From assembly GCA_031364845.1 (NCBI GenBank), contig JANLWX010000007.1, positions 32,001 through 96,000 on the forward strand: a stretch of DNA of 64,000 nt, given 5' to 3'. The notes under the pieces are model-generated. The model was given only the letters and a program-made list of their open reading frames with translations. It was not told where the DNA came from and ran no database searches. Source of the DNA: Candidatus Eiseniibacteriota bacterium (GTDB taxonomy: Bacteria > Eisenbacteria > RBG-16-71-46). The translations under genes were made by a program, and so were the position numbers. Numbering within the stretch: the stretch's first letter is position 1; every line of letters begins with the position of its first letter. Of the stretch, positions 29,729 through 58,795 are shown piece by piece.

Positions 29729-30219
29729 AATAGCCTCCTGGCTCGGGGGAACAGCGGCCGCGGCCCCTCGCGGGGTCGCTCACCAGCGGACGGAAAGGTC
29801 CGCCGACCTCGGGCAAGGACGCGGCCACCCCGTAAGTCGTTGCGGTTGTGTCGGCGGTCCCGCCGGACCGGTGCGGATTGCACGGGTGGGCCGTGCATCG
29901 CGCGAGGGTCCGCGCCCGCGACGGCCAGCCGAGCGGCTCGAGACATCGGCCCCGGTACTTACCTTCGAGGTGCGCCGCCGTTGAGTCACGGGGCACCCCG
30001 AAGCCGAATTCACCCGACCCGCGATCTTGGTCATTGACATTCCCCGAACGTAAACCGATCCTATTCGTTGCGTCGGAGGAAGAATTCCGATTCGGTCGCG
30101 AAGTTCTATGGAACACCAACACGGGTCGCGTGCCGCGCTGAGTTGGTAGCGTGTGTCAGCCGTTCCAACTCTTTCCACATTTGGAATGGCGACTGCGGGC
30201 CCGAATCCAGGAGGGAATC

Positions 30220-31851
30220 ATGAGCCCCTTGCTGCCACCCGGCTCCCGCGCCCTTCGGCCGCGTCTACTGTATGCGACCGCACTCGCGTTGCTGCTCACA
30301 CCGTCGCTGGCGCTCGCCAGTCAATGCTTCCAGCCCGACGCCAGCGGCACCGTCTCCCTGCCCCCGGCGGGGTGCCCCTACGTCAGCCCGACGGACTTTC
30401 ACGTGATCGTGAACGGCCTTCCGCCGGGAACGACGATCAAGGTGGGTGTCGAACACTCGCGGTTCCTCAACGTCACGCACACGCCGGGCGGCTCGCTCGG
30501 AGGCGAGGTCGAGCAGTTCCAGTCGACGCTCCAGTTGACGCTCACCGGCACCGGTTCGCTGACCGGATATTCCCGATCGGTGCCGCTGAACGCGCAGTGC
30601 GTCACGCACGTCGGGCCGCGCACGCCGGGAACCTCCCCGCAGTCGTTCGACACGCAGATGCAGGGAATCCAGGGCCAGTTGCCTGCCGGTGATCCCGACT
30701 TCGATCTGCTGCGCATCACCGCGGGCAACGGATTCGGCATGCCGAGCCCGGGCCACACGACGTTGACGCAGCAGCCGGGCGGCAACTGGAACGTCGACAG
30801 CTTCTTCGACATCACGTATCGAATCGACTTCATCGGCAAGCCCGGCGGACCGCTGGGTGGGATGTCCGGCTCGACCACTGGGACCATCCGCATGGGTGCG
30901 GGTGAACCGCCGCCGCCGGTCCCGCCGTGCACGGTCGTGGACAACGGCACCGGCACCGTCGATCTGCCGCCTCAGGGATGCGGCTATGTCAGCCCCGACG
31001 ATCTCCACCGCATGATCGACGGTCTGCCTCCGGGCACGACCATCAACATCGCCGCGGAGCATGCGCAGTTCTTCAACGTCAATCACTTCCCCGATCCCGC
31101 GGGTGGCGAGAAGGAGCAATTCAGCTCGGGCCTCACGCTGCAGCTGAATGGCACCGGTGAGCTCTCCACCTTCCATCGCACCCTGTCGATCCAGACTCAG
31201 TGCCAGTCGGCAACGGAAGCTCGCGTTCCCGGCACGTCACCCCAGTCGTTCGACACGCAGATGGAGGGGGTCCAGGGCCAGATCACGGGTGATCCGGACT
31301 TCGATCTGCTGCGCGTCACCGCGGGCAGCAACTTCGGCCTGCCGAGCCCGGGGCACACGACGCTCACCTCGATACCGGGACCCAATGGACCCAGTGGGCC
31401 CGGCGCATCGTGGAACGTTTACAGCTTCTTCGACATCACCTATCGCATCGACTTCGTCGGCGCCCCGGGAGGAGCCCTGGCCGGACGCTCGGGTTCCACC
31501 ACCGCGACGATCCGCATGCAGACCGGCAATCCGGGCACGACCAGCGTTCCCGGGCTGGATCCGCAGGGTCCGCGCAGCCTCAAGCTCGTGAACCGGCCGA
31601 ATCCGTTCAACACCGGCACCTCGATCCTGTACCGGCTCACGCAGCCGGCCCGGGTTCGCCTGACGGTCTATGACGCGGCGGGCAAGCGCGTCCGCGATCT
31701 GATCGACGCCGCGATGCCGGCCGGACCGCACGCGATGTTCTGGGACGCCCGCAACGACGAAGGCCGCAAGCTCGGCGCCGGGCAGTACTTCATTCGCATC
31801 GCCATCAACGGCAAGCAGGCCGGCAGCACGAAGGCGACGATCATCAAGTAG
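30220..31851 (+). CDS. Secreted protein with two tandem ~200-aa repeats and FlgD-like C-terminal domain
   Basis: AGGAGG RBS; signal peptide; duplicated DPDFDLLR.TAG..FG.PSPGHTTL / SFFDITYRIDF; PNPFN...WDARNDEG. Confidence 0.85.
   Translation: MSPLLPPGSRALRPRLLYATALALLLTPSLALASQCFQPDASGTVSLPPAGCPYVSPTDFHVIVNGLPPGTTIKVGVEHSRFLNVTHTPGGSLGGEVEQFQSTLQLTLTGTGSLTGYSRSVPLNAQCVTHVGPRTPGTSPQSFDTQMQGIQGQLPAGDPDFDLLRITAGNGFGMPSPGHTTLTQQPGGNWNVDSFFDITYRIDFIGKPGGPLGGMSGSTTGTIRMGAGEPPPPVPPCTVVDNGTGTVDLPPQGCGYVSPDDLHRMIDGLPPGTTINIAAEHAQFFNVNHFPDPAGGEKEQFSSGLTLQLNGTGELSTFHRTLSIQTQCQSATEARVPGTSPQSFDTQMEGVQGQITGDPDFDLLRVTAGSNFGLPSPGHTTLTSIPGPNGPSGPGASWNVYSFFDITYRIDFVGAPGGALAGRSGSTTATIRMQTGNPGTTSVPGLDPQGPRSLKLVNRPNPFNTGTSILYRLTQPARVRLTVYDAAGKRVRDLIDAAMPAGPHAMFWDARNDEGRKLGAGQYFIRIAINGKQAGSTKATIIK
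30325..31527 (+). repeat. Intragenic tandem duplication (603-nt period)
   Basis: Copy 1 starts 30325 (CFQPD), copy 2 starts 30928 (CTVVD); long near-identical DNA stretches. Confidence 0.9.
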
Positions 31852-31927: not shown

Positions 31928-34660
31928 TCAGGAATCCTTCGTCGTCGCGCCTTCGCGGGGTGCCGCCACGCGCAGCAGCGGCGGGAGCACGAGCAAGGTT
32001 GCGACGAGGCAGCCGAGCAGGCTCACGACCGTAATCGATCCGAGCTGAGCGTTCGCGGGCACCTGTGACAGCGTGAGGATGCCGAATCCGGCCGTCACCG
32101 CGAGTGCGTTGACGAGGATGCCGGGTCCGGTCGCGGTGAGCGCGTCGAGCACCGCGGCCCCGTGCGGCTCGCCGCGCCGCGTGGCCTCGCGGTAGCGATG
32201 GACCAGGTGAATCGCGAAGTCGACGCCGACGCCCAGCACCATGCTCGCGAACATCGAGGTCGCGACGCCGAGCGGCATGCCCACGACTCCCATCATCGCG
32301 AACGTGCCCGCCACCGCGATGCCGGCCGGCGCCATGCACAGGATTCCCCAGCGCATCGAGCGGAACAGGATCGCGCTGACCGCGACGATCCCCAGCAGCG
32401 AGGCGAGCAGCGAACCGACCTGCGAGCGCACGATCGCCTGGATCAATGCCTGGCTCACGGCGACGTCGCCGGCGAAATCGATCCGCATCTTCAAAGGTGC
32501 CAGATGCTCGCGCTCATAGTCGCGAATCTCCGCCATGAGCTGCCGCGTGTCTCGGTAGTTCGCGTTCTTCAAGAATACTGTGATCAGCGCGTGGTCCAAC
32601 TGCGGGGTTGCGACTTCGCCGACGCGCCCGGCGCCGAACACCGTCCGAAGTGCCGACCACAGCCAGCGCACGCGATCGGGATCGCTCGGAATGCCGCGCG
32701 ATCCCGGTGACCGATCGCTCATGAGGAATTCAACGGTCGCGATCTGATCCGAGGGCCCGAGAACTCCGCCGACCGAAAGCTGCGACCGGGCGCGCACGAA
32801 CTGTTCGAGCGAGTCGAGCGCCATGAGCAGCGACGGAATTGCGAGCCGCTGGGAGAGAAGCGCGAACATGAGGGTGTCGGACGGTTCCGGCATCAACAGG
32901 AACTGCGCCGAGCCGTGGTAGAGCGGCGTCGTGACGGCGATGCGGCCGTCGCGGCGTTCGGCGCTTTCGACGACCGAGGACCAGTATGAAGGCTGGCCGA
33001 GTTCCGGCAATCCGGGGCGGCGCGACGCGGAGGATTGCCGGGCGGATCGTGGCAGGACGCTCACCCAGAGCGAGCAGCCGGTGAGCAAGGTGGGGTCGGC
33101 GATGAGGCTGTCCGGGAACAGCGTCACGTTGCCGTGCAGATCCGCAGGAGACAGCGTGCCCTGGATGAGAAGCGGGCGTCCCGTGTCGACCGACAGCAGC
33201 AGCCGATGCGTCCCGAAGAACTGCCGGTTGAAGTACTGCGTCGCCCGATAGAACGCGCTCGAGGGCGCGAACCCGCTGATCCAGCTGTCCTGGATCTCCA
33301 CCTTGCGGATCGCGAGCGGTGAAGCGAGCAGCGCGATCGCCGTGAGCGTCAGGGTGATCACGGGCCGCGCGCCGAGTTTTGCGATCCACGCGACCCATGC
33401 GCGCGGTGCCGCATCGCCCGCGTCACGCGTCCGTCCGGCGAGTGCGCGCGCCGGCAACAGCACCAGCAGTGCCGGGATCACGGTGAGTGTCCACACCATG
33501 CAGAACACGATGCCGGCCGCGGTGAAGATGCCGAACGCGCGGATCGGCGCGAGTGGCGACAGCGCGAATGCGAGAAAGCCGATCGCGGTGGTCCATCCGG
33601 TCGCCATCACCGGCAGGCTCGTCTCGTCGAGCGCCGCGCGAACCGCGGAGGTGATCGGTTCGTTCGGATGCGCGGCGACACGCTGGCGGTACGACGTGAA
33701 CACATGGATCTCGTCCGCGAGCCCCATCGACACGAGGATCACGGGCAGCACCGCCATCGTGAGATACACCGGCACGCCGAGCCAGCCCATGAGTCCGAAC
33801 ACGAACACCAGGCACGCGAGCGCTTCGCTCAACGGAAGCCAGGTCGCGGCAAAGCTCCTGAAGCTGATCAGGAACACGAGCCCCATGAACACGATCGCGA
33901 TCGGGAGCAGGCCGACGTGGCGGGCGATCGCCTCGCGCAGCCGGGCGATGGCGCGGGCGCCGTCGCCGGAAGCAGCGTCGAAGGCATCGCGCTGCGCACG
34001 GTGCTTCGAGATGCCGAGGTCTTCGAGAATGTGGACGCCGAGCAAGGCTTCCGCGACCGGCGCGCCGATCACGGTCACGTCGTGGCCCGCGGTGTCGGCG
34101 GCAGCGATCACCTCTCGGACGCTCGAGACGATCGCCGCGCGATCGGTGCCCGCATCGATCCCGGCGAGGATCGCGGCGGCACGCGCGTCGCGCGCGAGCA
34201 GCGTGCCCGACAGGAGTCCGATGTCGGCGATCTCGCCGCGCAATCGATCCATGTCGGCAGCCGTCGCCGGCAGCGGATCGAGGAGTTCGCGCCGGAGCAG
34301 CGTTCCCGGACGGAAGCGTTCGCTGGGTTCGGTCGCGAGGCTGCGCACGCTCGCCGAATCGATCCCGGGCAATTCCTGGAAGGCGTGCGTGAGGCGCGCG
34401 ATCAATGCCAGAGTGCGCGCGTCGTAGATTCCATCGGGGTTCCGCGAACGGACGACGATCACGAGCGGATCGTGTACGCCGAAAGCCTGACGCACCTGAT
34501 TGTCGAGCAGCACCGCGGGATCGCGCGGCGGGATCAGCGCGTGGCCGTCGGTGCGCAGGTGCAGTCGCAGCATCCCGGGCGCCACCGCTAGCGTGACGGC
34601 GAGCGCGAGAGCGAGGACCAGGCGCGGGCGCCGGATCGCGAAGTCGTGGAGATGCTTCAA
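31928..34660 (-). CDS. MMPL/RND family transporter
   Basis: Two repeats of TM + periplasmic loop + 5 TM; MGLADEIH and GVGVDFAIH motifs. Confidence 0.9.
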   Translation of the reverse strand: MKHLHDFAIRRPRLVLALALAVTLAVAPGMLRLHLRTDGHALIPPRDPAVLLDNQVRQAFGVHDPLVIVVRSRNPDGIYDARTLALIARLTHAFQELPGIDSASVRSLATEPSERFRPGTLLRRELLDPLPATAADMDRLRGEIADIGLLSGTLLARDARAAAILAGIDAGTDRAAIVSSVREVIAAADTAGHDVTVIGAPVAEALLGVHILEDLGISKHRAQRDAFDAASGDGARAIARLREAIARHVGLLPIAIVFMGLVFLISFRSFAATWLPLSEALACLVFVFGLMGWLGVPVYLTMAVLPVILVSMGLADEIHVFTSYRQRVAAHPNEPITSAVRAALDETSLPVMATGWTTAIGFLAFALSPLAPIRAFGIFTAAGIVFCMVWTLTVIPALLVLLPARALAGRTRDAGDAAPRAWVAWIAKLGARPVITLTLTAIALLASPLAIRKVEIQDSWISGFAPSSAFYRATQYFNRQFFGTHRLLLSVDTGRPLLIQGTLSPADLHGNVTLFPDSLIADPTLLTGCSLWVSVLPRSARQSSASRRPGLPELGQPSYWSSVVESAERRDGRIAVTTPLYHGSAQFLLMPEPSDTLMFALLSQRLAIPSLLMALDSLEQFVRARSQLSVGGVLGPSDQIATVEFLMSDRSPGSRGIPSDPDRVRWLWSALRTVFGAGRVGEVATPQLDHALITVFLKNANYRDTRQLMAEIRDYEREHLAPLKMRIDFAGDVAVSQALIQAIVRSQVGSLLASLLGIVAVSAILFRSMRWGILCMAPAGIAVAGTFAMMGVVGMPLGVATSMFASMVLGVGVDFAIHLVHRYREATRRGEPHGAAVLDALTATGPGILVNALAVTAGFGILTLSQVPANAQLGSITVVSLLGCLVATLLVLPPLLRVAAPREGATTKDS

Positions 34661-34669
34661 CGCGCGGCG

Positions 34670-35332
34670 TCAGCCCGAATGGGGGTCGTCGGAGCCGGGT
34701 ACTGCGCCGTTCGCCTGCGGCGGGAGATATCCGTGCTGCGCCATGCGCGCCCCGCTCGCGGCGTGATCCTCGTTCGCCATGGCGTGAACTCCGCCGGCAT
34801 CGCACCAGCGGTTGTAGAAGTTGAACAACGCGCACACGGTGATCGCGTCATAGACCGCCTCCTGCGACCATCCGGCCCGGACGACCGCATCGATATGTTC
34901 GCGATTCAAGTCCCAGGACGCGCGGTTCATCTGCTCGACGAATGTGAACAGCGCGCGGTCGGCCTCGGATATCGGTGCGGTGACGAGGTCCGCGAGCACT
35001 GCATCCACGCGTGCGCGATCGCCGAGCAGCTCCGCCGCGACCGCGGCGTGGCTGTTGAGTCAGAACGGGCAATGGTTGAGCCGCGACGTGTAGGCCGCGA
35101 TCAACTCGCGCAGCCCCGGTTCGAGCGGCGAGGGTCCGCGCATCACCTCGTGGGTGAAGCGCGACAGGTGCTGCGTGCGTTCGGGCTTGTAGGCGAACAG
35201 GAACATGATCTGCGGCACGTCCATGCCCGCGCGCGCGAGGCCCTCGATCACGCCGGCGTATGCGCCGGCCGGCGATTCGTGCAGCGCCGGCAGGAACATC
35301 GCTTCGCCCGTCGCGCCGGGATCGCCCTTCAC
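34670..35332 (-). CDS. AhpD/carboxymuconolactone-decarboxylase-like selenoprotein (UGA=Sec at 35060-35062)
   Basis: ORFs 35060-35332 and 34670-35008 are in frame; readthrough gives RELIAAYTSRLNHCPF-U-LNSH...ALFNFYNRW; SECIS-like hairpin follows. Confidence 0.88.
35027..35054 (-). promoter_or_regulatory. Putative bacterial SECIS element (AhpD-like gene)
   Basis: mRNA CAGC-CA-CGCCGC-GGUC-GCGGCG-GA-GCUG; apical loop begins 17 nt after the UGA. Confidence 0.75.
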
Positions 35333-35757
35333 GAGACTTCCTCGTACGCGCGCGCCGCGCGCAGCAGCTCATCGGGAATCGGAGCCGGCACCATGCGGCC
35401 GTTCTCGCGGCGCATGAACGCGACCTGCTGCTCGCCGCGCGCGACCGGTTGTTCGCCCTGCGCCGTCGCGAGCAGATAGTCGAACTTCATCGTGAGCCGG
35501 TTCTGCGCGGCACCGCCGAAGTGCATGCGGACGATCACTTCGTCGAACGGTTCCAGCTCGCGCAGGTATTCGCACGAGCAGCGCGTGGTCACGAGCACGA
35601 GCCCGCCGCCGATCTCTTCGAGCATGTTCGGCGCGTGGTCGCGCAGGAACAACTCGCGGCAGCGGCCCTGCCAGCGGATGAAGTTCACGTAATAGACATT
35701 GCCGAGCAGGTTGGTCTCTTCGAACGCGACCACGTGACGCATTTCATAGCCCGCCAT
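35329..35757 (-). CDS. Enediyne hot-dog thioesterase (E10/TEBC family)
   Basis: YEMRHVVAFEETNLLGNVYYVNFIRWQGRCRELFL. Confidence 0.92.
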   Translation of the reverse strand: MAGYEMRHVVAFEETNLLGNVYYVNFIRWQGRCRELFLRDHAPNMLEEIGGGLVLVTTRCSCEYLRELEPFDEVIVRMHFGGAAQNRLTMKFDYLLATAQGEQPVARGEQQVAFMRRENGRMVPAPIPDELLRAARAYEEVS

Positions 35758-38700
35758 CGTCCCTCCTTGCGAGCACCGCCATCACCGTGGGTTCCGTTGC
35801 GTCCTGGATCGAGGCGAGGTAGGTCGCGACCCGCAGCGGGCCCGACGCGAGCACCGTCCAGCCGTCGGCGCCGGTCTCGACCAGCACTAGCGGCTGATCG
35901 CCCGCCCAGCCTGCCTTGCGCAGACACTCGTGCGCTGCCCACACCCGCGTGGCGGCCGGACCGAGTTCGCCCGCCGACTCGCTCGCCATCCGTTCCGCGA
36001 GGCCGAAGCGCCGCGGTCCGAGCAGATCGCGCCATTGCAGTTCGGTGCGCGCGATCACACCGGCGACGTCGCAGCCGATCGGCCCGCAGCCGCCGATCGC
36101 GAACGTCAGCGTGCCCGCATGCGATGACGAAACCGATTGCGCGGGCTCGGACGGAAGCGAAGGCTTGCCGTTGGGGTCGCGGTGCACGGCGATCGCGCGG
36201 CCAAAGGCGAGGCTCATCGCGTGTTCGCTGTTGCCTCCGCGGGTGGCGTGGCCGTTCGCCGCGAGCGCCACGCGCACGGCCGAGCCCGGAATCAACTCGG
36301 CGACGCGCCGCTCGACGTAGGGTCCGAGCAGCGGCAGCGGCCACGCGCCGGCGCGCGCGACACCCGGCATCGCCTTGAGTTCGAGTCCTTCCCAGCGTTC
36401 GCGCACGCGGCCGCCGGCGTCCGCGATCTCGAGGTCGTAGACGAACCGATCCCCGAGCCGCGACCGCTCGCGCGCGTGCACGGTCCACGGCGCGCCCGCG
36501 CCCAGATCGCCGGGGACGATGCGCGCGACCGCGGTCGGCAGCACCGTCATGTGGGGGATGCACGCCTGGATGCCGTGGATCGCGGCGTCGCGCGCGCCGG
36601 GATCGCCGAGCACGAGGTCGGCGGGCACGTAAGGCCCGAACCACTCGGGCCGGGTGTCGGTCGCGATCTCGACCACGCATTCGGTCGCTCGCAGCACACG
36701 GTAGTTCAGCACGCGCTGGAAGCGGCCGCTCTGGAACAGCATGCCGCCGTAGAGATCGCGTTCCGGATCGAGCGGCAGCGGTCCGTTCAAATCGTCACGA
36801 TCGGCGAGGTGTTCCAGGCCCGCGGGCCGCGCGCCGAACACGCAGCGCGCCTCGAAGTGATCGACCGCGAAATCCGATTCGGACGAACGCAGCACGACGT
36901 CGACGCTGCCGTCCTCTCGCATGAGCGCCGCCACGCGCAGCGTGCACTCACCACCCGCGGGCACGGTGATCGGGCGATGGAACGCGACGCGCTCGAACAC
37001 CGGAGCATTTGATTCGCCGGCGAGCGTCATCGCGACCTGTGCGATCGCTTCGAGCCCCATCACGGCCGGCAGCAGCATCACGCCGCGATAGACGTGGTCG
37101 CGCAGATAGGGATCGCTCTCGGGCGAGAGATCGGTGTCGACCACCAGCTCGATGCCGGGATAGTGGACCGCGATCCGCTCGATGAACCGCCGCAGCGGCA
37201 TCGGCGGCTGCTCGAGTGCCAGCGTCGGTAACTCGCCGATGCGTCCGGCGACGATCACCGACGAGCCCGGCAACGGTGCGCGCAGCAGGCGCGACAGCAT
37301 CCCGATGCCGGCCTCTGGCGCGATCGGTGTGATGCCTTCGCGCATCAGCGCATCCAACCGCCCGAGTCGCTCGCCCATGCCGGTGCCGGACCACACCGAC
37401 CACTCCACCGACAGGCAGCGGCAGGCAGCGTGCTCGGTCTGGAAGCGCTCGACGAAGCGCGTGAGCCATTCGTTCGCGAGGCCGTAGTCCGCTTCGCCGC
37501 GTAGTCCGGTGCGCGCGATGATCGAGCCGAACGTGACGAACAGTTTGAGCGTGCCGGGATCGATCGCCGCGAGCACGTTGCGCGCGCCGTCGAGTTTCGT
37601 GCGCAGCGTGCGCTCGACGATGGCTTCAGTGAGCGCGCTCAGCGGGCGCGGTTCGTTGATGCCGGCGCCGTGCAGCACCGCGACGACCGGGCCGAGACGC
37701 TGCTCGATCGAGCGCACTGCGTCGCGCACGGCTTCCGCGTCGGTGACGTCGGCCGCGGCGTAGTACGTCGTCACACCCGCGGCCGCGAAGCGCGCGAGGT
37801 TCGCCGCCAGCGCGGGATCGCTGCCGGCATCGGAGCGCCCGATCAGGCCGAGCTTCACGCCGTATTCGCGTGCGAGTGCCAGCGCGCATTCGGCCGCGAT
37901 GCCTTTGCCGCCGCCGGTGACGAGCATCACGTCGTCCTTCGCGAGCGGCGGAGCGTGCACGGCGGCCGTTTCCGTGAGCGGCGTCATCACCGGTTCGTGG
38001 CGCCGCCCATCGCGGTCGTAGCGCGCCTCGTGATAACCGAGTGCCGCGTTCGCTTCGGCGACGATCCAGGCGACGGCGTCTTTGTGGTCGTACGGCACAT
38101 CCACCACGCACGTCGTGGTGTCGCGCGATTCGAGGTGCAGGCTGCGCGCGAACGCGCCGCCGCCGCCGCCCTGCTGCACGACCACGAAGCGCGCGCCGCG
38201 GTCCGCCATCGCGAGCCGCGCGCCTTCGAGCAGCCGCGCGATGTCGCGCGCATCAGGCTCCGCGGCGAGGCACACGACGACTCCGCGGCCGGTGCCCTCG
38301 GCGTGCAGTGCGCGTTCGAGGTCCGCCGCGATTGGATGCTGAGCGTCGGCGAGCACGCGCCATTCCGCGGGGCCGGCGGGCTTCGGACGTGACGGGCGCG
38401 GGCGTTCGACTTCGCGCACGACGAACGGACGCACCCAGGGACCGACGCCTTCGGCGATGCGGCGCGGCGCTTTCGGCGCGCCGCCGGTGCGCAGCTCGGC
38501 CAGCGCGATCGCGAGTTCGGCGACCGTGGCTCCGGCATAGCTCGCGGGATCCGCGGGCGCGGGCAAGCCGAGGCGCCGCGCGCCGTCGACTGCCAGTTGC
38601 CCGACGGTGATCGAGTTCAGGTGCAGGTCACCGAGCAGGCGATCATCGTCACCGACCGCGGATACCGGCAGCTCGACCTGTTCGGCGACGAGCCGCCGCA

Positions 38701-41608
38701 CGACTTCGAGCACAGCCGCGGGGTCGTCGGCGGACTCGGCGCCGTTGCCGTGCGCGGCGCCGTTCGTGGCCGCCGGTTCGTGATCGCGATCGACGGTTGC
38801 CGTGGCGCCGCTCGTCGTGTGCGCCGCTACGGCGTGCGTGCCTGCGTCCGAAGGCAACGGCGCCTGCTCGCACGGATTCGCGAAGAAGCTCAGCGGGCGA
38901 TCGAGGTCGAACGCGCGCGCGAAACGCCCGGCGAACAACGGCTGCGGATCGACCGCGCCGCCGAGCGCCCACACCGCGCCCGTCGCGCGCAGCAGGCCGG
39001 CGATCGATTCGCTGCCGGCGTCGAGTGCGATCGCGGGGGCGGGGCCGAGATCCGCGACCAGTCCGCTCAGCACGTGCCCTGGACCGACCTCGATCCACAA
39101 ATCCACATTGCGCGCATGGCTCACGGCTTCCACGAAGCGCACCGGATGCGTGACCTGGCGACACAGCAGCTCTCGCACGTCGTCGTCGCGCCCGAGCGGA
39201 GTACCGCTCACGGTCGAGAGCACGCGGCGCTCGACCGGTTCGAATCGTTCGCGATCGAGCTGCGCGCGCAGCGCCGGTTCGGCCGCGGCCACGAGCGGCG
39301 AGTGGAACGCATGCGATACCGCGAGCGCGGTCGCCGGAATGCTCCGCGCCCGCGCGATCTCGACCACCGCGGTGACGGCGTTCGCTTCACCCGCGATCAC
39401 GGTGCGGCGCGGGCCGTTCAAGCCCGCGATCACCACCGCATGTCCCGCGATCAGAGTGCCGACTTCTTCAGCCGTCGCGGCGAGGCTCGCCATGGTTCCG
39501 TTCGAAGCCGCGAGATCCGCCATCGCGCGTCCGCGCGCGGCGGCGATCCGCACCAGCGCGTCCGCGTCGAACACCGAGGCCCAGTGGCATGCCGTGATCT
39601 CGCCGAGGCTGTGGCCCACGGCCACCTCGGCGCACACGCCGAGCTCATCGAGCAGCCGAAGTGCTGCGAGTGAATTCGTGACGATCGCGGGCTGCGCGAT
39701 CTGGGTCGCGGTCGTGTCGGTGGTCGTTGCCGCTTCCGCCGCGACACGCGTTGCGACCGCGTCGTACAAAGGCCGCAGCGACTCGAACCGCCGCGCCCAC
39801 AGACCGCCTGCGACGTTCGAGGGCGCGCCCTGGCCCGTGAACAGAAATCCGATGCGCGGTGACGTGCCGCCCAGTGCGCCCAGGCTGATGCCGCGCGCGA
39901 CATCGAGCCGTACCTCGACGCCTTCGGCGAGCCACGCATCCAGCACACCGAGGCGTTCGTCGAGTTCGCCTGGCGTCGAGGCGACCACCGCCGCGCGTCG
40001 CGCATCGGCGCCGGCCGTTGCCTTCGCCGCCAGCGAGTTCTGCAACGTGCACGCGACGTCCGCCATCTCGGCCAGGGAGAGCCGGCCGGCCAGCGCGCGA
40101 AGCCGCGCGATCTGATCGCGGAGCGCCTGCGTGTCGGCGCCCTCCAAGAGAAACAACTCGGCATCCTGCGGACTGGAGATCAGCGCTCGCTCATCGTCCG
40201 TGAGCGCCGTGCGGCGTTCCGGGGTCGCGCTCTCGATCACGACGTGCGTGTCGATCCCGCCGAAGCCCATCGCGCTCACCGCGGCGCGCAGCGGCATGCC
40301 GGACGGCCACAACTCTCCCGAGCGCGGCGTTCTGAGATCGGCACGGTCGCGCACGAGACGCGGGTGCGGATCGCGCTGTCCCGCGAGCGGCGGCAGCACC
40401 TGCGCGCGCACCGACATCGTCGCCTTGATCAGCCCCGCCACGCCGGCCGCGGCCTTGGTGTGGCCCATGTTCGCCTTGATCGATCCGAGTGCGGCGGCGG
40501 GTGCGGTGCCGGTGCCGCGCGCGCGCAGGATCACATCCAACTCGGTGAGGTCGCCGACTTCGGTTCCGGTCCCGTGTCCTTCGAAGTAGCCGATCGTTTC
40601 CGCGCCGAAGCCCGCGCGGCGATAGGCGCGCTCGAGTGCGAGCAACTGGCCCGAAGCTTCGGGCCGCGTCATGCCGCCGCTGCCGTCCGAAGCCACGCCC
40701 CAGCCGCGGATCACACCGTGGATGCGCCGTCCTTCGGCGCGCGCCTGATCGGCGCGCATCAGCACCACGAAACCGCAGCCTTCGCCGGGCCAGAAGCCGG
40801 TGGCGCGGGCGTCGTAGACGCGCATGTCCTCGCGCGCGAGCACGCCGACGCGCGAGAACCCGACCAGTTCGAACGGATCGAGGCTCAGATCGACGCCGCC
40901 CGCGAGTGCGAGGTCGAGATCGCCCGCCGCGAGCGCCGAGCATGCGGTGGTGACCGCGAGCAGCGACGAGGCGCACGCGCCATCGACGGTGTAGCCGCCG
41001 CCGTTCAGGTCAAAGTGATTGCAGATGCGTCCGGCGATCGTGTTCGACAATCCGCCGGCAAGCGACTCGCCGCCGACGGCCGGGAACGGAGCCTTGTAGC
41101 GCGTCTCGAGCGAGGCGAGGAACGCCTGGCGGCGCTCGGGCGCCCAGTCGCTCTCCGCGAGTGCGGCGTCGACCACGCGCCGCACGTAGGGCCAGCGCAA
41201 ACGCAGCGTGTTCGCGCGCGAGAATTCGCCGGTCAGCGTGTTGCCGACCAGCACTCCGGTCATCGCGCGCGGCAGGCCGTGTCCGTCGGCGAAGCCCGCG
41301 TCGGCCAGCGCCTGATCGGCGACGTCGAGCGCCAGCCAGTGCGCGAGGTCGACCTCGCGATACGTGGCGCCGGCGGTGCGGAAGCGCACGCGATCGAACT
41401 CGTAGCCTTCGATCACCGCGGCCTGCGTGGTCGTCACCGAGTCCGACAATCCGGCGTCCGCGTGATAGTCCTCGATCCGCAGGCGCTCGGCCGGCATGCG
41501 GCGGAACGCGCGGCGCTGCGCGAGCGCGTTCTCCCACAGTTCGGCGGGGGAGCGCGCATCGGGGTAGCGGCAGCCCATGCCGATGATCGCGATCGCGTGA
41601 TCAGGCAT
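35744..41608 (-). CDS. pksE: Enediyne iterative type I polyketide synthase (KS-AT-ACP-KR-DH-PPTase)
   Basis: GNTLTGEFSRA..LRLRWPYV; DGACASSL, EGHGTGT, GHTKAAAG; GHSLG/AFHS; DLHLNSI; GGGKGIAAECA; HVYRG...LP; GKP..SSSHAG..GCD. Confidence 0.96.
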   Translation of the reverse strand: MPDHAIAIIGMGCRYPDARSPAELWENALAQRRAFRRMPAERLRIEDYHADAGLSDSVTTTQAAVIEGYEFDRVRFRTAGATYREVDLAHWLALDVADQALADAGFADGHGLPRAMTGVLVGNTLTGEFSRANTLRLRWPYVRRVVDAALAESDWAPERRQAFLASLETRYKAPFPAVGGESLAGGLSNTIAGRICNHFDLNGGGYTVDGACASSLLAVTTACSALAAGDLDLALAGGVDLSLDPFELVGFSRVGVLAREDMRVYDARATGFWPGEGCGFVVLMRADQARAEGRRIHGVIRGWGVASDGSGGMTRPEASGQLLALERAYRRAGFGAETIGYFEGHGTGTEVGDLTELDVILRARGTGTAPAAALGSIKANMGHTKAAAGVAGLIKATMSVRAQVLPPLAGQRDPHPRLVRDRADLRTPRSGELWPSGMPLRAAVSAMGFGGIDTHVVIESATPERRTALTDDERALISSPQDAELFLLEGADTQALRDQIARLRALAGRLSLAEMADVACTLQNSLAAKATAGADARRAAVVASTPGELDERLGVLDAWLAEGVEVRLDVARGISLGALGGTSPRIGFLFTGQGAPSNVAGGLWARRFESLRPLYDAVATRVAAEAATTTDTTATQIAQPAIVTNSLAALRLLDELGVCAEVAVGHSLGEITACHWASVFDADALVRIAAARGRAMADLAASNGTMASLAATAEEVGTLIAGHAVVIAGLNGPRRTVIAGEANAVTAVVEIARARSIPATALAVSHAFHSPLVAAAEPALRAQLDRERFEPVERRVLSTVSGTPLGRDDDVRELLCRQVTHPVRFVEAVSHARNVDLWIEVGPGHVLSGLVADLGPAPAIALDAGSESIAGLLRATGAVWALGGAVDPQPLFAGRFARAFDLDRPLSFFANPCEQAPLPSDAGTHAVAAHTTSGATATVDRDHEPAATNGAAHGNGAESADDPAAVLEVVRRLVAEQVELPVSAVGDDDRLLGDLHLNSITVGQLAVDGARRLGLPAPADPASYAGATVAELAIALAELRTGGAPKAPRRIAEGVGPWVRPFVVREVERPRPSRPKPAGPAEWRVLADAQHPIAADLERALHAEGTGRGVVVCLAAEPDARDIARLLEGARLAMADRGARFVVVQQGGGGGAFARSLHLESRDTTTCVVDVPYDHKDAVAWIVAEANAALGYHEARYDRDGRRHEPVMTPLTETAAVHAPPLAKDDVMLVTGGGKGIAAECALALAREYGVKLGLIGRSDAGSDPALAANLARFAAAGVTTYYAAADVTDAEAVRDAVRSIEQRLGPVVAVLHGAGINEPRPLSALTEAIVERTLRTKLDGARNVLAAIDPGTLKLFVTFGSIIARTGLRGEADYGLANEWLTRFVERFQTEHAACRCLSVEWSVWSGTGMGERLGRLDALMREGITPIAPEAGIGMLSRLLRAPLPGSSVIVAGRIGELPTLALEQPPMPLRRFIERIAVHYPGIELVVDTDLSPESDPYLRDHVYRGVMLLPAVMGLEAIAQVAMTLAGESNAPVFERVAFHRPITVPAGGECTLRVAALMREDGSVDVVLRSSESDFAVDHFEARCVFGARPAGLEHLADRDDLNGPLPLDPERDLYGGMLFQSGRFQRVLNYRVLRATECVVEIATDTRPEWFGPYVPADLVLGDPGARDAAIHGIQACIPHMTVLPTAVARIVPGDLGAGAPWTVHARERSRLGDRFVYDLEIADAGGRVRERWEGLELKAMPGVARAGAWPLPLLGPYVERRVAELIPGSAVRVALAANGHATRGGNSEHAMSLAFGRAIAVHRDPNGKPSLPSEPAQSVSSSHAGTLTFAIGGCGPIGCDVAGVIARTELQWRDLLGPRRFGLAERMASESAGELGPAATRVWAAHECLRKAGWAGDQPLVLVETGADGWTVLASGPLRVATYLASIQDATEPTVMAVLARRDDGGL

Positions 41609-42554
41609 GGGCGAACTCGCGCTCTTGAGTGAAGTGGTTCTGGATGCGCTGGCGCCACACTTCGAAGGCCGGAGCGTCGCCTTCGCTCTCGAGATTCTGG
41701 CGCGCGCGCTCGGTGATCGCGGCGGCCTCGGGAGCGGTCATTCCGCACAGGATCTCGCACGCGAGGTCTGTGCCGGGCGCGGGATTCCCCGCGCGCACGC
41801 GGGCCTGCGCGGCGAACGCCGCACCCTGCGCGACTTCGGGGAGAAATGTGCCGCACGCCGCACGCAGTGCCGTCAATCCGGTGCGATCGATGCCCCCCGC
41901 GTATGTGGCGGCGAGGCCCGCGCCCGCCCACAGATCGCTGCGGCGCGCGGGATCGAAGCGCGCGATCGTGCGCGCGATGCGCGAGGGCTCGGCGCCTTCG
42001 ACGAACCACAGACTGCGTCCGAGGCCCTGATCGAACACACGCTGCGCATGGGCGCTCAACTGCTCCGGTCGCCGCTGTTCCGTGATGGTTCGCGGCCAAT
42101 GGAAGTATCCGTCGTGGAAGCCGAGGCCGTCGATCACGAGCCAGCGCAGCACCGGATCGTCCTCGTTTTTCATGAAGCGGGCGACGTTGCCGCCGAGCCG
42201 CGCCGCGGCCCAGCCGGCACCGATGTACACCATGTAGGCGTGGGGCGCGCCCGGGCCTTTGAGCAGCGCGCGCCACTGGCTGTCCCGCCACGGCATTACG
42301 GTGTCGAGCAGCGCGAGGCCCATCGCGGCACCTTCCCAGGCGAAGCCCGCCATCTCGCGCTCCACCCCCGCGAGGCGCTCGGGCAGCCGGTCGGCGCGCG
42401 TGACATCGAGGGCGGCGTGGTATCCGTCGACGAAGGTTCCGCCGATGGCTTCGAGGCGCTGGCGGACCGCGGGCGCGGCCCCGCGAAAACCGCGGCGCTC
42501 GAAGCGAGTCTCAGCGGCGGAAATGCCGAACACGAGCCTGCGAAGCGCGCGCAC
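41601..42554 (-). CDS. Enediyne cassette protein E3/UnbL (DUF1702)
   Basis: GFAWEGAAM, WLVIDGLGFHDGYF, DQGLGRSLWF, DLWAGAGLAATYAGG; GTG start after GGAGG. Confidence 0.92.
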   Translation of the reverse strand: MRALRRLVFGISAAETRFERRGFRGAAPAVRQRLEAIGGTFVDGYHAALDVTRADRLPERLAGVEREMAGFAWEGAAMGLALLDTVMPWRDSQWRALLKGPGAPHAYMVYIGAGWAAARLGGNVARFMKNEDDPVLRWLVIDGLGFHDGYFHWPRTITEQRRPEQLSAHAQRVFDQGLGRSLWFVEGAEPSRIARTIARFDPARRSDLWAGAGLAATYAGGIDRTGLTALRAACGTFLPEVAQGAAFAAQARVRAGNPAPGTDLACEILCGMTAPEAAAITERARQNLESEGDAPAFEVWRQRIQNHFTQEREFAHA

Positions 42555-42826
42555 GAGGGAACGCCTCCATGATCGAACGTGCCCGGTGAGTGTGTCCCGC
42601 GCGTGATTCAAGACAGACGGCGGCGGTGTTTGGGGTCGAAGCGGCTGGCGGCCCAGGCACGAGTGTGCTTCGCACGAAGTTTCCGCCCCCATGCGCATGA
42701 ATGTCAAGGATTTCCACGTTTCAAGCCGCCCCCGGTTGGCGTAAGCTGTCGCTGCCTCGCCTAGCATGAACCGGGCGGACCTGTAGCCCGGTCCGGGCCT
42801 GGGGCTCGCCGCGCTCCGGAGCAACC

Positions 42827-44790
42827 ATGAACGCATTCGTCCTGCGCACGATCGTGATGGCCGTGATGCTCGCCGCGGGATCGTTCTGGATCCGGCACAA
42901 CGACCGGCCGGTCGTGGAAGCGGGCGTTCGGTTCGAGGAGATCTCCGAGCGCGCCGGCTGCCGCAACGTGCACACGAAAGTCGAGCTGTCGCCACGTTTC
43001 GCGAACATCATGCCGTGGCTGGCTTCGGTCGGCGCGGCCGTTACCGCGGCGGACTACGATGGCGACGGTTGGATCGACCTCTACCTCACGAACTCCGGCC
43101 GCGGCGACGCCAATCGGCTGTTCCGCAATCGCGGCGACGGGACCTTCGAAGAGCGCGCGGCCCAGAGCGGTGTGGCGTGCGGCAACGCCGAAGGCGCGTG
43201 CATGCACGCGGTGTTCGGCGACATCGACAACGATGGCGATCCGGACCTCTACGTCGCCAAGTGGGCCGCCGAGAACCAGCTGTTCGAAAACCAGGGCGAC
43301 GGAACGTTTCGCGACGTGACCGCGCGCGCCGGAGTCGGGCACTGGGGCTACGCGAACTCGGCGACGTTCGTCGACTTCGATCGCGACGGGCGGCTGGATC
43401 TGCTGGTCGGCAACTATTTCGCAGAGCAGGTCATCGATCCGCGCACCGGTGCGCTCGCGCGCTCCGATCTGTGGAATCCGGTTTCGAGCCGCGTGATGCA
43501 CTCGACGTTCACGCACGCCGACAACGGCGGCCGCACGCTGCTCTATCGCAACCGCGGCGACGGCACGTTCGAGGACGTTGCGGAAGCGTCGGGACTCGAG
43601 TTCCGCGGATGGACGCTCGCGGTCGGAGCGGCCGATCTCGACAACGACGGCTGGCCCGACCTCTATCTCGCGAACGACTTCGGCCCCGACGAGCTGTACT
43701 TCAGCACCGGCAGCACGGAGCAGCCGCCGCGCTTCCGGCGTGTCATCGACACTTCCGGCCATCCGGGGATCGGCGACGACTGGTGAAGGGCATGAACGTC
43801 GACTTCGGCGATGTCGATGGCAACGGCTATCTCGACATCTACGTCACCAACATCTTCGAGCGGCGCTACAAGAGTGACGAAGGCAACATGCTGTGGCTCA
43901 ACTTCGCGCGACCGGGAACGGCAGGGGAGCGGCGGTTCGTGAACGTCGGGCTCGAGAGCGACGTCTACGACGGCGGCTGGGGCTGGGGTGCCAAGTTCCT
44001 CGACGCGAACGACGACGGGCTGCTCGACATCCTGGCACTCAACGGCTTCGTCAAAGGCGATCCCGACCACACCTACTGGTATGCGCTGCAGGAGATGGTG
44101 ACGCAGATGAAGAACAACTCGGCCGATGCCGCGGACTGGCCGGCGATGGGGCCGCGCGATCTGTCGGGCGGCCAGTCGAGTCGGCTATTTCTACAACAGG
44201 CGAAGGCCGCGCGGCCTTCCGGCCGGCGCCCGCCTGGTGATGGCGGTCCGCGCTTCGCCGAGCTGGCGACTTCGGCGGGCATCGACGATCGCGAGAACGG
44301 CCGCGGCGTCGCGGTGCTCGACTTCGACAACGACGGGGCACTCGACCTGTGCATCGCGAACCAGGGTGGACCGTCGCTGCTTTATCGCAACCGGCTTCAG
44401 CGCACCGCGACCGGTCCGCACTGGATCGGCCTTGCGCTGCAAGGTCGCCCGGATCTCAAGGGCTCGCTCGGCGCGGGTGCGCAGGTCAGCACCGCCGGAG
44501 CGATCGGCGCGCGCGCGGTGCTCGTGAGCGGCGATCGCACGCAGACGCTCGAAGTCTCAGGCGGCACCGGCTTCGCATCGCAAAGCGATCCGCGCCTTCA
44601 CTTCGGCATCGGCGAGCGCACTCGCGCCGACCTGCTGACCGTGCGCTGGCCGAGCGGACGCGTGCAGACCTTCTCGGGCGCCGAGCTCGACGCATGCCTC
44701 GGCGGCTACGCGCGGCTTGTCGAAGGCGGGGCACTCGAGCCGCGCGCCGGATCGCCGGCGGGCACCGCGGTGGCGAGCGTGACCCGATGA
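42827..44790 (+). pseudogene. Enediyne cassette E4/UnbV (CRTAC1/ASPIC-UnbV, FG-GAP repeats), split by an apparent 1-nt frameshift near 43785
   Basis: DxDxDG repeats in both halves; ...GDDW* then KGMNVDFGD in the adjacent frame; C-terminal GGTGFASQSDPRLHFG...VRWPSG. Confidence 0.85.
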
Positions 44791-45806
44791 GCACGCCGCC
44801 ACGTTCACGCAGCCGCTCGGGCTTCGTATGGACGGTGCTCGCGATCGTGGGAGTCGCGGCGATCGCCGTCGTCGCCGTGCGGCGCGGCGGACTGCTCGAC
44901 CTTCCCAAAGTTCCCGACGGCGTGACCGCGGAGTCCGCGGGCCTCGCAAATCTCGATCAACTCCGGCAGCGGGCCGCGGAACTGGAAGCCGCGCAACGTG
45001 GCGACTCCGACGCAGCGCTGGTGGCGGCGAGCACCGGGCTCAAGGCGGTGGCCGATGGTGAGGTTGGCCCCGGGCTCGATTCACTACGCCACGCGCTGCG
45101 CCTCGCTCCCGACGACCTCGTGCTCGGCAATGCATATCGAATGGCAGTGCTGAAGCTGCGCCGCGCGGCGATGAAGGACGCAGCCGCACGCGCGGCGCTG
45201 GCCGGGCGTCTGCCGCCGGCGATCGAGCACGAGCCGATCGCATTTCTGGAGACGCTGCGGCGCGAGCATCCGAGCCGCGAGGTCACGCTGCAGCTCGCAC
45301 TCGCATGGGTCGACGAGTTGATGCTGTTCGGAGCGCTCGAGATCAAGGCACCGGCGAGTGTCGAGTCGGTGACGCTTTTGAGCGGCATCCTCGAGCAGGA
45401 GCCGTCGTACGTTCCCGCCCTGTTCGGGCGCGGGCTCAACTATCTGCACCGGCCTTCGCGGCTGGTGTGGCCGGAGTCAAAGAAGATGGCGCCCGACGCT
45501 GCGAGCCGCGACATCGGGATGTGCGTGGCGATCGGCCGCAAGATCGGCGGCGGTTCGCCGCAACTGGTCGGCACGCTCGCGCTCACACTCGGCGACGCCT
45601 ACGCCCGCGAAGGGCGCTTCGAGAACGCGCGCTCGTGGTGGCAGATCGCGCAGAACAGCGGAGGCGGAGCCGAACTCGGAGCCGCGGCGCGCCGGCGCTT
45701 CACGTGGGGCGATCGCGACGTGCCGGACCGCCTCGAGCAGGAGCTGGAGACGCGCATGTCGGACCTCGACCATCCGCTTTCGGATCTGGCGGTGATATGG
45801 CAGTGA
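44787..45806 (+). CDS. Membrane-anchored helical/TPR-like hypothetical protein
   Basis: ATGA overlap with E4; one N-terminal TM; ALFGRGLNYL, LGDAYAREGRFENARSWW. Confidence 0.7.
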   Translation: MSTPPRSRSRSGFVWTVLAIVGVAAIAVVAVRRGGLLDLPKVPDGVTAESAGLANLDQLRQRAAELEAAQRGDSDAALVAASTGLKAVADGEVGPGLDSLRHALRLAPDDLVLGNAYRMAVLKLRRAAMKDAAARAALAGRLPPAIEHEPIAFLETLRREHPSREVTLQLALAWVDELMLFGALEIKAPASVESVTLLSGILEQEPSYVPALFGRGLNYLHRPSRLVWPESKKMAPDAASRDIGMCVAIGRKIGGGSPQLVGTLALTLGDAYAREGRFENARSWWQIAQNSGGGAELGAAARRRFTWGDRDVPDRLEQELETRMSDLDHPLSDLAVIWQ

Positions 45807-46720
45807 GCGCGGCGACTTCCACGGCGGCGCCGGTGCGCGTCGTCATCCCGACGCTCAAGGATCCGCGCGTGATGATCGCGTTGGCACTCACGGTGTGGAC
45901 CACGTTCGGGCAGACGTTCCTCTATTTCGACCGCGATCTGAGCCAGATCGCCGTGGCATTGGTCGCCGGGTGCGTGCTCGACATGCTGTTCGCGTTCGTC
46001 CTGCTGCGCCAGGTTCTGGTTCCGATCAGCGCCTACATCACCGGACTCTCGATCGCGATCCTGCTCGAGAGCTACGACTGGCGTGTGTTCGCGATCGCCT
46101 CGGCGTGGGGGATCGCGTCCAAGTATCTGCTGCGCGCGGGCGACCGGCACTTCTTCAACCCGTCCAACTTCGGCATCGTCGCGGCATTGGTACTGATGCA
46201 GGGCGTCGCGACCGTGGCACCCGGATCGCAGTGGGGAGGGGATTACCGCGTCGCGTTCCTGATCCTCGCGCTCGGCATGATGATGATGCGCCGCTTGAAG
46301 CGGCTCGACCTCGCGTTCGCTTGGCTCGGCGGCTACGTGGTGATGAGTCTTCTGCGCGTGGCGCTCGGGCAGGGCGGGCTGATCTTCGCGCTCGGTCCTT
46401 TGACCGGTGCCGAGTTCGCGCTGTTCACGTTCTCGATGCTGCCCGATCCCAAGACCAGCCCGCCGACTTCGCGCGGGCGCATCGCGTGGGGCCTGACGAT
46501 CGCGGTGATCGACGGCGTCCTGCGCCTGCTCGAGGTGCGCTACTCGATGTTCTACGCGCTGTTCGCGATGTGCGCGTTGCTGCCGGCGTTCCACGCGGTG
46601 GCGGCGGCGCGCGGCGTGCGCGAATCCGATCCGTGGCGCACGGTGGTCGCGGTGTGGGGGCGCCCGCGCGGTGGACCTGCGGCGGACACTGCTCGACGCG
46701 ACGTGCGCCGGCCCGACTAG
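45797..46720 (+). CDS. Enediyne cassette E5/UnbU (RnfD/NqrB-like membrane protein)
   Basis: SKYLLR..DRHFFNPSNFGI, FTFSMLPDPKTSP. Confidence 0.85.
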   Translation: MAVSAATSTAAPVRVVIPTLKDPRVMIALALTVWTTFGQTFLYFDRDLSQIAVALVAGCVLDMLFAFVLLRQVLVPISAYITGLSIAILLESYDWRVFAIASAWGIASKYLLRAGDRHFFNPSNFGIVAALVLMQGVATVAPGSQWGGDYRVAFLILALGMMMMRRLKRLDLAFAWLGGYVVMSLLRVALGQGGLIFALGPLTGAEFALFTFSMLPDPKTSPPTSRGRIAWGLTIAVIDGVLRLLEVRYSMFYALFAMCALLPAFHAVAAARGVRESDPWRTVVAVWGRPRGGPAADTARRDVRRPD

Positions 46721-57242: not shown

Positions 57243-58328
57243 TCAGTGGCCCGCGGGCGACTCCAACTGCGCGAACAGCCGCCGCACGCCCGCGCGCGTG
57301 TGGCCGCCGATCATGGCGCGCGTCGCGATGCGCTTCACCTCCGGGCGCGTGAGCTTCGGGCGCGTGTCGCCGCACGGAAACGCGGGATCGCGCCGCGCTT
57401 CACGCAGCGAAGCCAGCGCCCACAGCGCGGGCCACAGGCAGAACATCCGGTAGCGCCAGTGGCGTGCGGGAATGCGCTCGAGGTATTCCGGCACTTCGCC
57501 GAGTGCCGCGCGCGCGAGCGCTTCGAGCCGCCGTGCCGCCGCCTTGGCCCCGACGCGCGACGGATCGACGAGTTCGTGCGGTTTCAGTTGGTATTCGTCG
57601 AGCCACGCCGCCGGCACGTAACAGCGCCCGCGCCGCACGTCGCGCGGCCAGTCGAGCAGGATGTTCGTGAGCTGGAGCGCCTCGCCGACCGCGGGGGCGA
57701 GCTGGATCAATTCGGCGTCGGTGTCCGGTTCCTTCGCGGGCGCGCGCAGCGCGTGGAGCTGCGTCAGCATCACGCCGACGCAGCCCGCCACCACGAAGCA
57801 GTAGTCGTGCAGCTCCGCCTCGGTGTCGAGGTAGGCGGGAAGCGCGGCCGGATCGCCTTCGCGTGCGGCGGCGCGCACGGCGTAGCGACGCATGCCGTTC
57901 GCCATCAGCGTGACTGCGCGCGCGACGATCATGCGATCGCCCGCATCGAGCCCCGCATAGACGCGCAGCACCGCGGGAAGATGGGCGACCAGCTCGAGGT
58001 CCGGTGAAGCCGCTCTGAGCGCGTGCGCGGAACGCGCGAGTTCATCCGCCGCCGCGCCATGCCCGCCGAGCGCTTCGACGAACAGATCGAAGCGCCCGCC
58101 GACTTCCGAAGGTGCTCCCGGCCACGAGTCCTCGAGCGCGTCCGCCGCCCGGCACAGGAGGTAGGCGATCTCGACCGTGTCGTGCATGGAGCCGCGCAGC
58201 ACGCCGATGTTCGCTGCGAACGTGCGCGACACGCGCGGCAGCACCTCGTGACAATAGGCGCGATCGGCGGCGAGATTCGCACCACCCGCGACTTGCGGCG
58301 AGAAGGATTCCGCGCTCGGCGCCGTCAC
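57243..58328 (-). CDS. Squalene/phytoene synthase family protein
   Basis: VSRTFA, YLLCRAADALED, YCFVVAGCVG, LQLTNILLD..D..RGRCY.P. Confidence 0.9.
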   Translation of the reverse strand: MTAPSAESFSPQVAGGANLAADRAYCHEVLPRVSRTFAANIGVLRGSMHDTVEIAYLLCRAADALEDSWPGAPSEVGGRFDLFVEALGGHGAAADELARSAHALRAASPDLELVAHLPAVLRVYAGLDAGDRMIVARAVTLMANGMRRYAVRAAAREGDPAALPAYLDTEAELHDYCFVVAGCVGVMLTQLHALRAPAKEPDTDAELIQLAPAVGEALQLTNILLDWPRDVRRGRCYVPAAWLDEYQLKPHELVDPSRVGAKAAARRLEALARAALGEVPEYLERIPARHWRYRMFCLWPALWALASLREARRDPAFPCGDTRPKLTRPEVKRIATRAMIGGHTRAGVRRLFAQLESPAGH

Positions 58329-58795
58329 GCGGCTTCGATCTCCTCGATCTCGGCGGTCCAGCGCACGGAGACCGCATTGCGGAGCGTCGCCGCGGTCGGG
58401 CATTTCTCCTGGTGCCGCGCGAGCGCGCGGTCCACCGTCTCGCGCGTGCCGGACGGGATGCGCAACCGGTAGTGGACGACGATCTCTGTAAGCACCGGCA
58501 TTCCCTCGCGCACCTCGTGCAATCCTTCGGCCTCGGCCGCGATCGCGTCGTTCGGAAGCTTGACCTGCCGCACATCCAGCGCGGCTTTCAGGGTTCCGAG
58601 CATTCAGCCCGCGGTGGCCGCGACGATGAAGTCGACGGGCAGCGGAAGCTCGCGCTCCGGATCGAGCCGGAACAGCTCGCGAACCGCGCCATGCACTCCG
58701 AAGTCCACTTCGGGGCCGGATTCGAGATGCGCGCGGCGATGCAGCGGCCCCAGCACTTCGAGGCGTGAGCGCGACGTATAGAAAGGTTCGGTCAT
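58325..58795 (-). CDS. OsmC/Ohr-like selenoprotein (UGA=Sec at 58604-58606)
   Basis: ATG 58795 after AGGAG; DFIVAATAG-U-MLGTL continues in frame to HQEKCPTAATL. Confidence 0.85.
58564..58592 (-). promoter_or_regulatory. Putative SECIS element (OsmC-like gene)
   Basis: mRNA CCU-GAAA-GCCGCGC-UGGAU-GUGCGGC-AGG; loop begins 25 nt after the UGA. Confidence 0.55.

Follow-up and report, generated by a model that had tools for sequence, protein, structure and literature searches.

A predicted AhpD-like selenoprotein gene within the enediyne-type polyketide synthase operon of a Candidatus Eiseniibacteriota bacterium

The 64,000-nucleotide stretch of Candidatus Eiseniibacteriota DNA that was analysed here (the window) carries on its minus strand, at 34670..35332, a predicted selenoprotein gene of the AhpD-like family (TIGR01926 / CMD PF02627), located between the E10 thioesterase and MMPL transporter genes of an enediyne-type cassette. 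Judged from the sequence, its in-frame TGA almost certainly encodes selenocysteine (Sec), and the gene was likely inserted at the E10-MMPL junction in one lineage. The reading favoured by the analysis, with a probability of little more than one half (about 0.52), is that the inserted CxxU gene encodes an accessory selenol peroxidase, which would offer optional redox protection and would not be a core enzyme of the pathway.

Translation of the minus strand over 34670..35332 gave a single frame of 220 codons that is interrupted by one internal stop, a TGA at 35062-35060, in the context NHCPF-*-LNSH. When read through, this TGA unites the ORFs 35060-35332 and 34670-35008 into a single AhpD-like gene, of which both halves are gene-like in composition (GC3 of 0.91 and 0.82). 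The read-through product scored 94.6 bits against TIGR01926, above the cut-off of 81.8, and the Pfam CMD family was also matched. From the family profile, the alignment and a structural model, the predicted selenocysteine (codon 35060..35062) is residue U91 of the motif C88-x-x-U91-x-x-x-H95, with E76 upstream. The original prediction that two ORFs are fused via one TGA at the second Cys of a CxxC motif was confirmed by the frame translation and the homologue alignment. It was also accurate on the flanks of the gene: the E10 stop and the GTG start share nucleotides (GTGA), and MMPL begins with a TTG at 34660, 9 nt past the AhpD-like stop, where about 10 nt had been given. Because the homologues begin at Met12, which is the ATG at 35299, the true start may be this conserved ATG and not the GTG; the protein would then have 209 instead of 220 aa.

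The position of the TGA was compared with homologues from two sources. Sixteen loci were drawn from GTDB genomes, and TGA was present in all 14 that align through the Sec column; this count leaves out L068, a C-terminal fragment, and L067, in which the sequence is broken or divergent there. The TGA-bearing loci come from Acidobacteriota, from Myxococcota and from the group of the host itself; L088 and L178 have TGA as well. Among 120 protein homologues the same column was most often Cys (81), followed by Trp (36), Ser (2) and Arg (1); the Trp residues are probably TGA codons that were mis-translated. Cys or TGA is what had been expected at this column. The genome of the host (G000, 97% complete) encodes the complete set of selA, selB, selD and tRNA-Sec (selC), which had been proposed as a check and of which all four scored over their cut-offs. 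The host selD itself contains a TGA, and no match between it and E. coli was obtained by blastn, an uninformative outcome. In sequencing run X2 one contig spans the TGA codon and none among the differences listed falls there.

Downstream of the TGA a bacterial SECIS hairpin was predicted at 35027..35054 on the minus strand (upper stem 35048-35033, GGUC loop 35042-35039, and a lower 4-bp stem). The stem is of 6 bp, the 4-nt GGUC loop starts 17 nt past the UGA, and the hairpin folds at -20.2 kcal/mol. As quoted in a review (PMC13188914), the rules for bSECIS elements are a loop of 3-9 nt, a stem of 4-16 bp, a G at loop position 1-2, a distance of 16-37 nt from the UGA and an MFE of -7.5 or lower, and the values of the hairpin lie within the ranges as quoted. 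The likeness to the fdhF SECIS of E. coli (NC_000913.3) that had been pointed out was reproduced by folding both elements: the latter has a GGUC loop too, 18 nt past its UGA. As a control for chance, all 110,975 TGA triplets of the genome were considered; a 6-bp hairpin with GGTC was present at 16-20 nt after 21 of them, and any 6-bp hairpin with a G-loop after 1,304. The peptide AAVAA offered a second comparison. In TGA-bearing homologues that encode it, the present gene included, the full stem was found in 9/9 and the stem with GGTC in 8/9, whereas at the other in-frame AAVAA sites of the host genome these numbers were 10/36 and 1/36. This implies that the hairpin is not dictated by the peptide. 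The folding z-scores were modest: three fragments gave values between -0.8 and -2.0, and the longest one gave +0.5. Covariation over 12 sequences was not above that of shuffles (84/500), and an Rfam search of the SECIS region returned no relevant match.

AhpD-like selenoproteins with a CxxU motif were reported in 2005 from the Sargasso Sea survey (PMC1088965) and the family (COG2128 / TIGR01926, CxxU) is catalogued in a review (PMC13188914), so that their existence, which the original prediction took as established, has indeed been known for long. The present gene belongs to this family: the score against TIGR01926, the CxxU motif, a bSECIS of the consensus type and the Sec machinery were all found. 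The difference lies in the surroundings. The review's account of the family has no polyketide or secondary-metabolite context, whereas the present gene lies within a pksE operon, a context that is unusual but optional.

Other TGA-bearing or possibly truncated genes were encountered as well. The homologue on Gemmatirosa plasmid 2 (L178, 15001-18898) has a TGA and an identical 16-nt SECIS core, and a SelB-like gene is about 1 kb away. The homologues P0003-P0010 are about 330 aa long and, as seen in P0003 and P0004, carry at the N-terminus an additional, partial copy of the C-terminal half of the domain; possibly they are tandem genes truncated at a Sec codon. Within the window, an OsmC-like gene at 58325-58795 on the minus strand, with a TGA at 58604-58606, is a second candidate for a hidden selenoprotein. 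Its read-through product scored 50.8 bits against PF02566, compared with 34 for the C-terminal piece alone, and a SECIS was without clear support.

That the AhpD-like gene sits in an enediyne operon, as originally proposed, was verified by tblastn with C-1027-type genes. The enediyne PKS cassette has been defined as E3/E4/E5/E/E10 (PMC4480864), and all five core genes are clustered in the window, with E3, pksE and E10 on the minus strand and E4 and E5 divergent. The E10 thioesterase (35329..35757) matches C-1027-type E10 at 49%. It is preceded by pksE (35744..41608), which encodes an iterative type I polyketide synthase of 1954 aa that matches SgcE at 46% over 1987 columns, and by E3 (DUF1702; 41601..42995), the true start of which is probably downstream of the GTG given for the ORF. 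On the plus strand, E4 (UnbV/CRTAC1; 42827..44790) is interrupted near 43,780 by a frameshift, and profile and tblastn matches identified E5 (UnbU, RnfD-like) as the C-terminal part of an ORF at 45305..46720. An ORF of about 330 aa for which no Pfam match was obtained lies between E4 and E5, at about 44,800-45,800 (plus strand). At the E4 frameshift the contigs of sequencing runs X1 (possibly the source of the assembly) and X2 both show a one-base indel relative to the window, and the frameshift is for this reason probably an assembly error; a decaying cluster, as the frameshift might have suggested, was consequently rejected. The run labels point to freshwater sediment as the habitat of the host.

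On the other side of the AhpD-like gene lies the MMPL/RND transporter gene (31928..34660, minus strand). MMPL is a recurrent partner of non-actinomycete pksE cassettes and often follows directly after E10. A probably secreted protein with a FlgD-like tail is encoded at 30151..31851 on the plus strand and is common to the pksE clusters G101, G053, L205 and L207. In both the host phylum and Acidobacteria this protein, about 50% identical, recurs together with MMPL beside pksE cassettes, and it may be an undescribed component of the cassette. Reduced cassettes of the form E3-pksE-E10 were seen in G017:C16 and G164:C20 (L072-L073, L083), where E4 and E5 were not found in the stretches fetched.

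Among the additional conserved genes of 9-membered enediyne clusters E2, E7, E8, E9, E11, M and J are listed (PMC9682884). By tblastn, queries for E6, E7, E8, E9, E11, M and J had no match at 1e-8 in the 97% complete host genome, and the E2 query matched only the E3 gene. The absence of E6, E7, E8, E9, E11, M and J indicates that this is not a typical 9-membered enediyne cluster.

The distribution of the AhpD-like gene bears on the question of whether it might be a passenger, that is, a mobile general-purpose selenoperoxidase gene tolerated at the E10-MMPL junction with no role linked to the product. Several observations would agree with this. Of the 16 genomes that hold the closest homologues, 15 had no E10 match and the sixteenth has E10 on another contig. 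The neighbourhoods of the clade at 15 loci were unrelated and heterogeneous (45 of 80 flanking ORFs scanned). In a genome of the same genus that has no E10, an internally deleted AhpD-like remnant is all that is left, at a different site. Besides, the gene was absent from all 54 other genome-derived E10 loci: 4 of 4 other E10 clusters of the phylum (25-40 kb fetched each), E10 being present in 5/206 genomes of this phylum, and the 50 loci (± 1.5 kb) of an Acidobacteriota/Myxococcota sample from which 10 further E10 matches had been left out. In these 50 loci a Sec-type AhpD between the PKS and the thioesterase was not found either; the layout was seen only with the Cys form, in the metagenome locus L127. 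Metagenome E10 loci had an AhpD-like gene in 2 of 80 cases, L088 and L127, of which set 68 extend at least 400 nt and 33 at least 2 kb downstream. Altogether this amounts to 2/134 other non-actinomycete E10 loci (0/4, 2/80 and 0/50), many of them with short flanks. Members of TIGR01926 in G101, G053 and G164 were located far from the pksE clusters or on other contigs. The idea of a 'dedicated' enzyme does not hold against the mixed neighbourhoods, the carrier genomes without an E10 match and the low count at E10 loci.

In L088, the closest relative, the order pksE-E10-AhpD(TGA) is shared with the window and the identity is 74%. Co-occurrence with pksE, which had been put forward as a check, was consequently found in part: L088 is linked, but the great majority of E10 loci and of carrier genomes is not. 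L127 carries a Cys-form AhpD-like gene between pksE and E10. In L089, the next-closest E10 locus, and in several others E10 runs directly into MMPL, which suggests that the AhpD-like gene was inserted there, likely in one lineage. Within the phylum, 2/5 genomes with E10 and 0/201 others had a member of the full-length clade (Fisher p 5e-4, a value overstated by kinship); the two carriers are kin genomes and in one of them the gene is unlinked to the cassette, the sister sequence of G017 being on a contig different from that of its pksE. The absence from most E10 loci implies that the cassette works without the AhpD-like gene and makes a passenger possible. However, the start-stop overlap with E10, the 9-nt spacing to MMPL, the layout kept by L088 at 74% identity and the presence of separate-clade AhpD-like genes in or beside the enediyne cassettes of two other lineages argue against it. 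Taking both sides together, a passenger seems unlikely, although it is the chief alternative and has to be given serious weight, and the link of the gene with the enediyne cassette appears real but optional.

Two observations on the distribution of related genes were made in passing. In the order of G586 (Acidobacteriota; L203-L231) E10 was present in 39/151 sampled genomes, mostly beside pksE; for a group other than actinomycetes, enediyne-type cassettes are very frequent there. At L058:10741-15476 a homologue of the Sec clade lies upstream of genes for a TPR/cytochrome c protein and a PKS-free UnbV/CRTAC1 protein.

AhpD-fold genes are not new to enediyne clusters, and a genuine association between the two is apparent. 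The C-1027 cluster holds two, SgcO and SgcM. SgcO (WP_010056303) is annotated as 'alkylhydroperoxidase' and SgcM is given as a conserved 9-membered gene of 'unknown, core biosynthesis' function in the gene descriptions of PMC9682884. SgcO resembles the present protein in being an AhpD-like single-domain protein, 35-39% identical, that occurs in enediyne clusters and once adjoins E10; it differs by its TxxC motif without Sec and belongs to a separate clade. Plasmid records with E10 had an AhpD-like match in at least 45 of 49 cases among the best 60 of 73 AhpD matches, a count that is inflated by near-identical strains and covers E10-bearing records only. By these best matches the distance to E10 was within 12 kb in at least 23 and within 30 kb in at least 27 records, and in one record the AhpD-like gene is directly beside E10. 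In quick trees the sequences of the window and L088 grouped with the unlinked copy of G017 (support 94-98) among Sec proteins of Acidobacteria and Myxococcota, and SgcO and L127 were placed in another clade. A single clade of cassette-linked copies was rejected in a quick tree of 32 rows (p-AU 1.3e-5, for a group picked after the first tree was seen). This points to independent recruitment and not to a Sec orthologue of SgcO. A literature search, which missed most subscription journals, yielded no report of an enediyne cluster with a selenoprotein. The original prediction knew of no AhpD-like selenoprotein in such a cassette; it overlooked that AhpD-fold genes of the Cys type, SgcO and SgcM, were already there.

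In AhpD peroxidases catalytic roles are played by Glu, His and Cys residues. An AlphaFold model of the AhpD-like protein (mean pLDDT 88) was closest in structure to 6K40, AhpD of Deinococcus radiodurans (Z 21.2, rmsd 3.2 over 182), and the peroxidase-related structures 2PFX, 2PRR, 3C1L and 2OYO gave Z 20.2-20.4. All five share the aligned RE...N.C..C...H motif at Z 20.2-21.2, but are Cys proteins with 20-27% identity and, according to their entries, of non-polyketide context. In the homologues E76, R75 and N174 were invariant (120/120) and H95 was present in 119/120. The model, the structural match of Z 21.2 and the alignment are in agreement with the AhpD helical fold and with a conserved Glu, His and redox pair. 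The first Cys of the CxxU motif is Thr in 19/120 homologues and in SgcO, and since it is replaceable in this way, it is the Sec position that is retained.

An accessory selenol peroxidase, the reading preferred here, would operate as follows. SelB would read the SECIS for the insertion of Sec91, the selenolate of which, aided by the Glu76/His95 pair, might reduce hydroperoxides or similar oxidants, and Cys88 would resolve the oxidised selenium. Co-translation with pksE, E10 and MMPL could make this reducing activity available at the time when polyene or polyyne products, which are sensitive to oxidation, are formed. The Cys-type SgcO of actinomycete clusters would likely fill the same niche, having been independently recruited.

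A different activity has been considered as well, namely that of a tailoring or detoxifying reductive deiodinase. PksE/E10/E3/E4/E5 would make an iodinated polyene, polyyne or arene, and its iodine would be the target of Sec91 or Cys88, much as Bmp8 acts on a brominated pyrrole. A diiodotetrayne is reportedly an intermediate in enediyne biosynthesis. In line with the earlier statement that iodinated intermediates occur there, an iodoanthracene intermediate and a requirement for iodide are described in PMC11350584 and PMC8725005, and the cassette has all five core genes. Bmp8 is a debrominase by the titles of its PDB entries 6OHI and 6OHJ, one of these structures having tribromopyrrole bound. 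It is homologous by sequence, if weakly (E 1e-5), and has the fold in common (Z 16.4, rmsd 3.3 over 172). However, Bmp8 is a Cys enzyme of 20-22% identity that ranked sixth, and the peroxidase-related structures outscore it (Z 20-21 vs 16.4). Its C82, mutated in the substrate complex, is presumably the first Cys of the Bmp8 CxxC, but in the present protein Sec stands at the second position of the motif, and Thr may take the place of the first Cys. The genomes that carry the clade are moreover mostly without pksE, and most pksE loci are without the AhpD-like gene. A deiodinase is for these reasons considered improbable. The wider proposal that enediyne clusters recruited AhpD-fold proteins repeatedly (SgcO-type, L127 and the Sec form) for a pathway-specific reaction, of which the Sec version would be a natural-product deiodinase of iodinated polyyne or arene intermediates, is held to be just as doubtful. 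If it were true, a selenoenzyme would be at work in a polyketide pathway, and the function of SgcO and SgcM would be pointed to.

The chance is slim that the gene is a stand-in for the SgcM of 9-membered clusters. It is true that SgcM, at L176:21504-22583 in the C-1027 cluster, has an AhpD-type CxxC domain, that it is listed as a conserved 9-membered gene (PMC9682884) and that no SgcM match was found in the host genome. Yet SgcM is a protein of 359 aa, for which tblastn at 1e-8 gave no match to the AhpD-like gene. Its companions E7, E8, E9, E11 and J, as well as E6, were not found in the host genome, so that the 9-membered context is missing. That the TGA is a genuine stop, due to a pseudogene or a sequencing error, would suit the weak z-scores and covariation of the hairpin and its lack of an Rfam match, but has a nearly negligible probability in view of the TGA kept in 14/14 aligned GTDB loci and in L088 and L178, the complete Sec machinery, the gene-like GC3 of both halves and the X2 contig across the codon.

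For the AhpD-like CxxU family the practical gain is a corrected annotation, since gene callers split these genes. The predicted accessory selenol peroxidase adds an independent, selenium-using case to the AhpD-fold genes that recur in enediyne clusters, and the Sec/Cys pair offers a simple assay by which a peroxide scavenger may be told from a halogen-removing enzyme.
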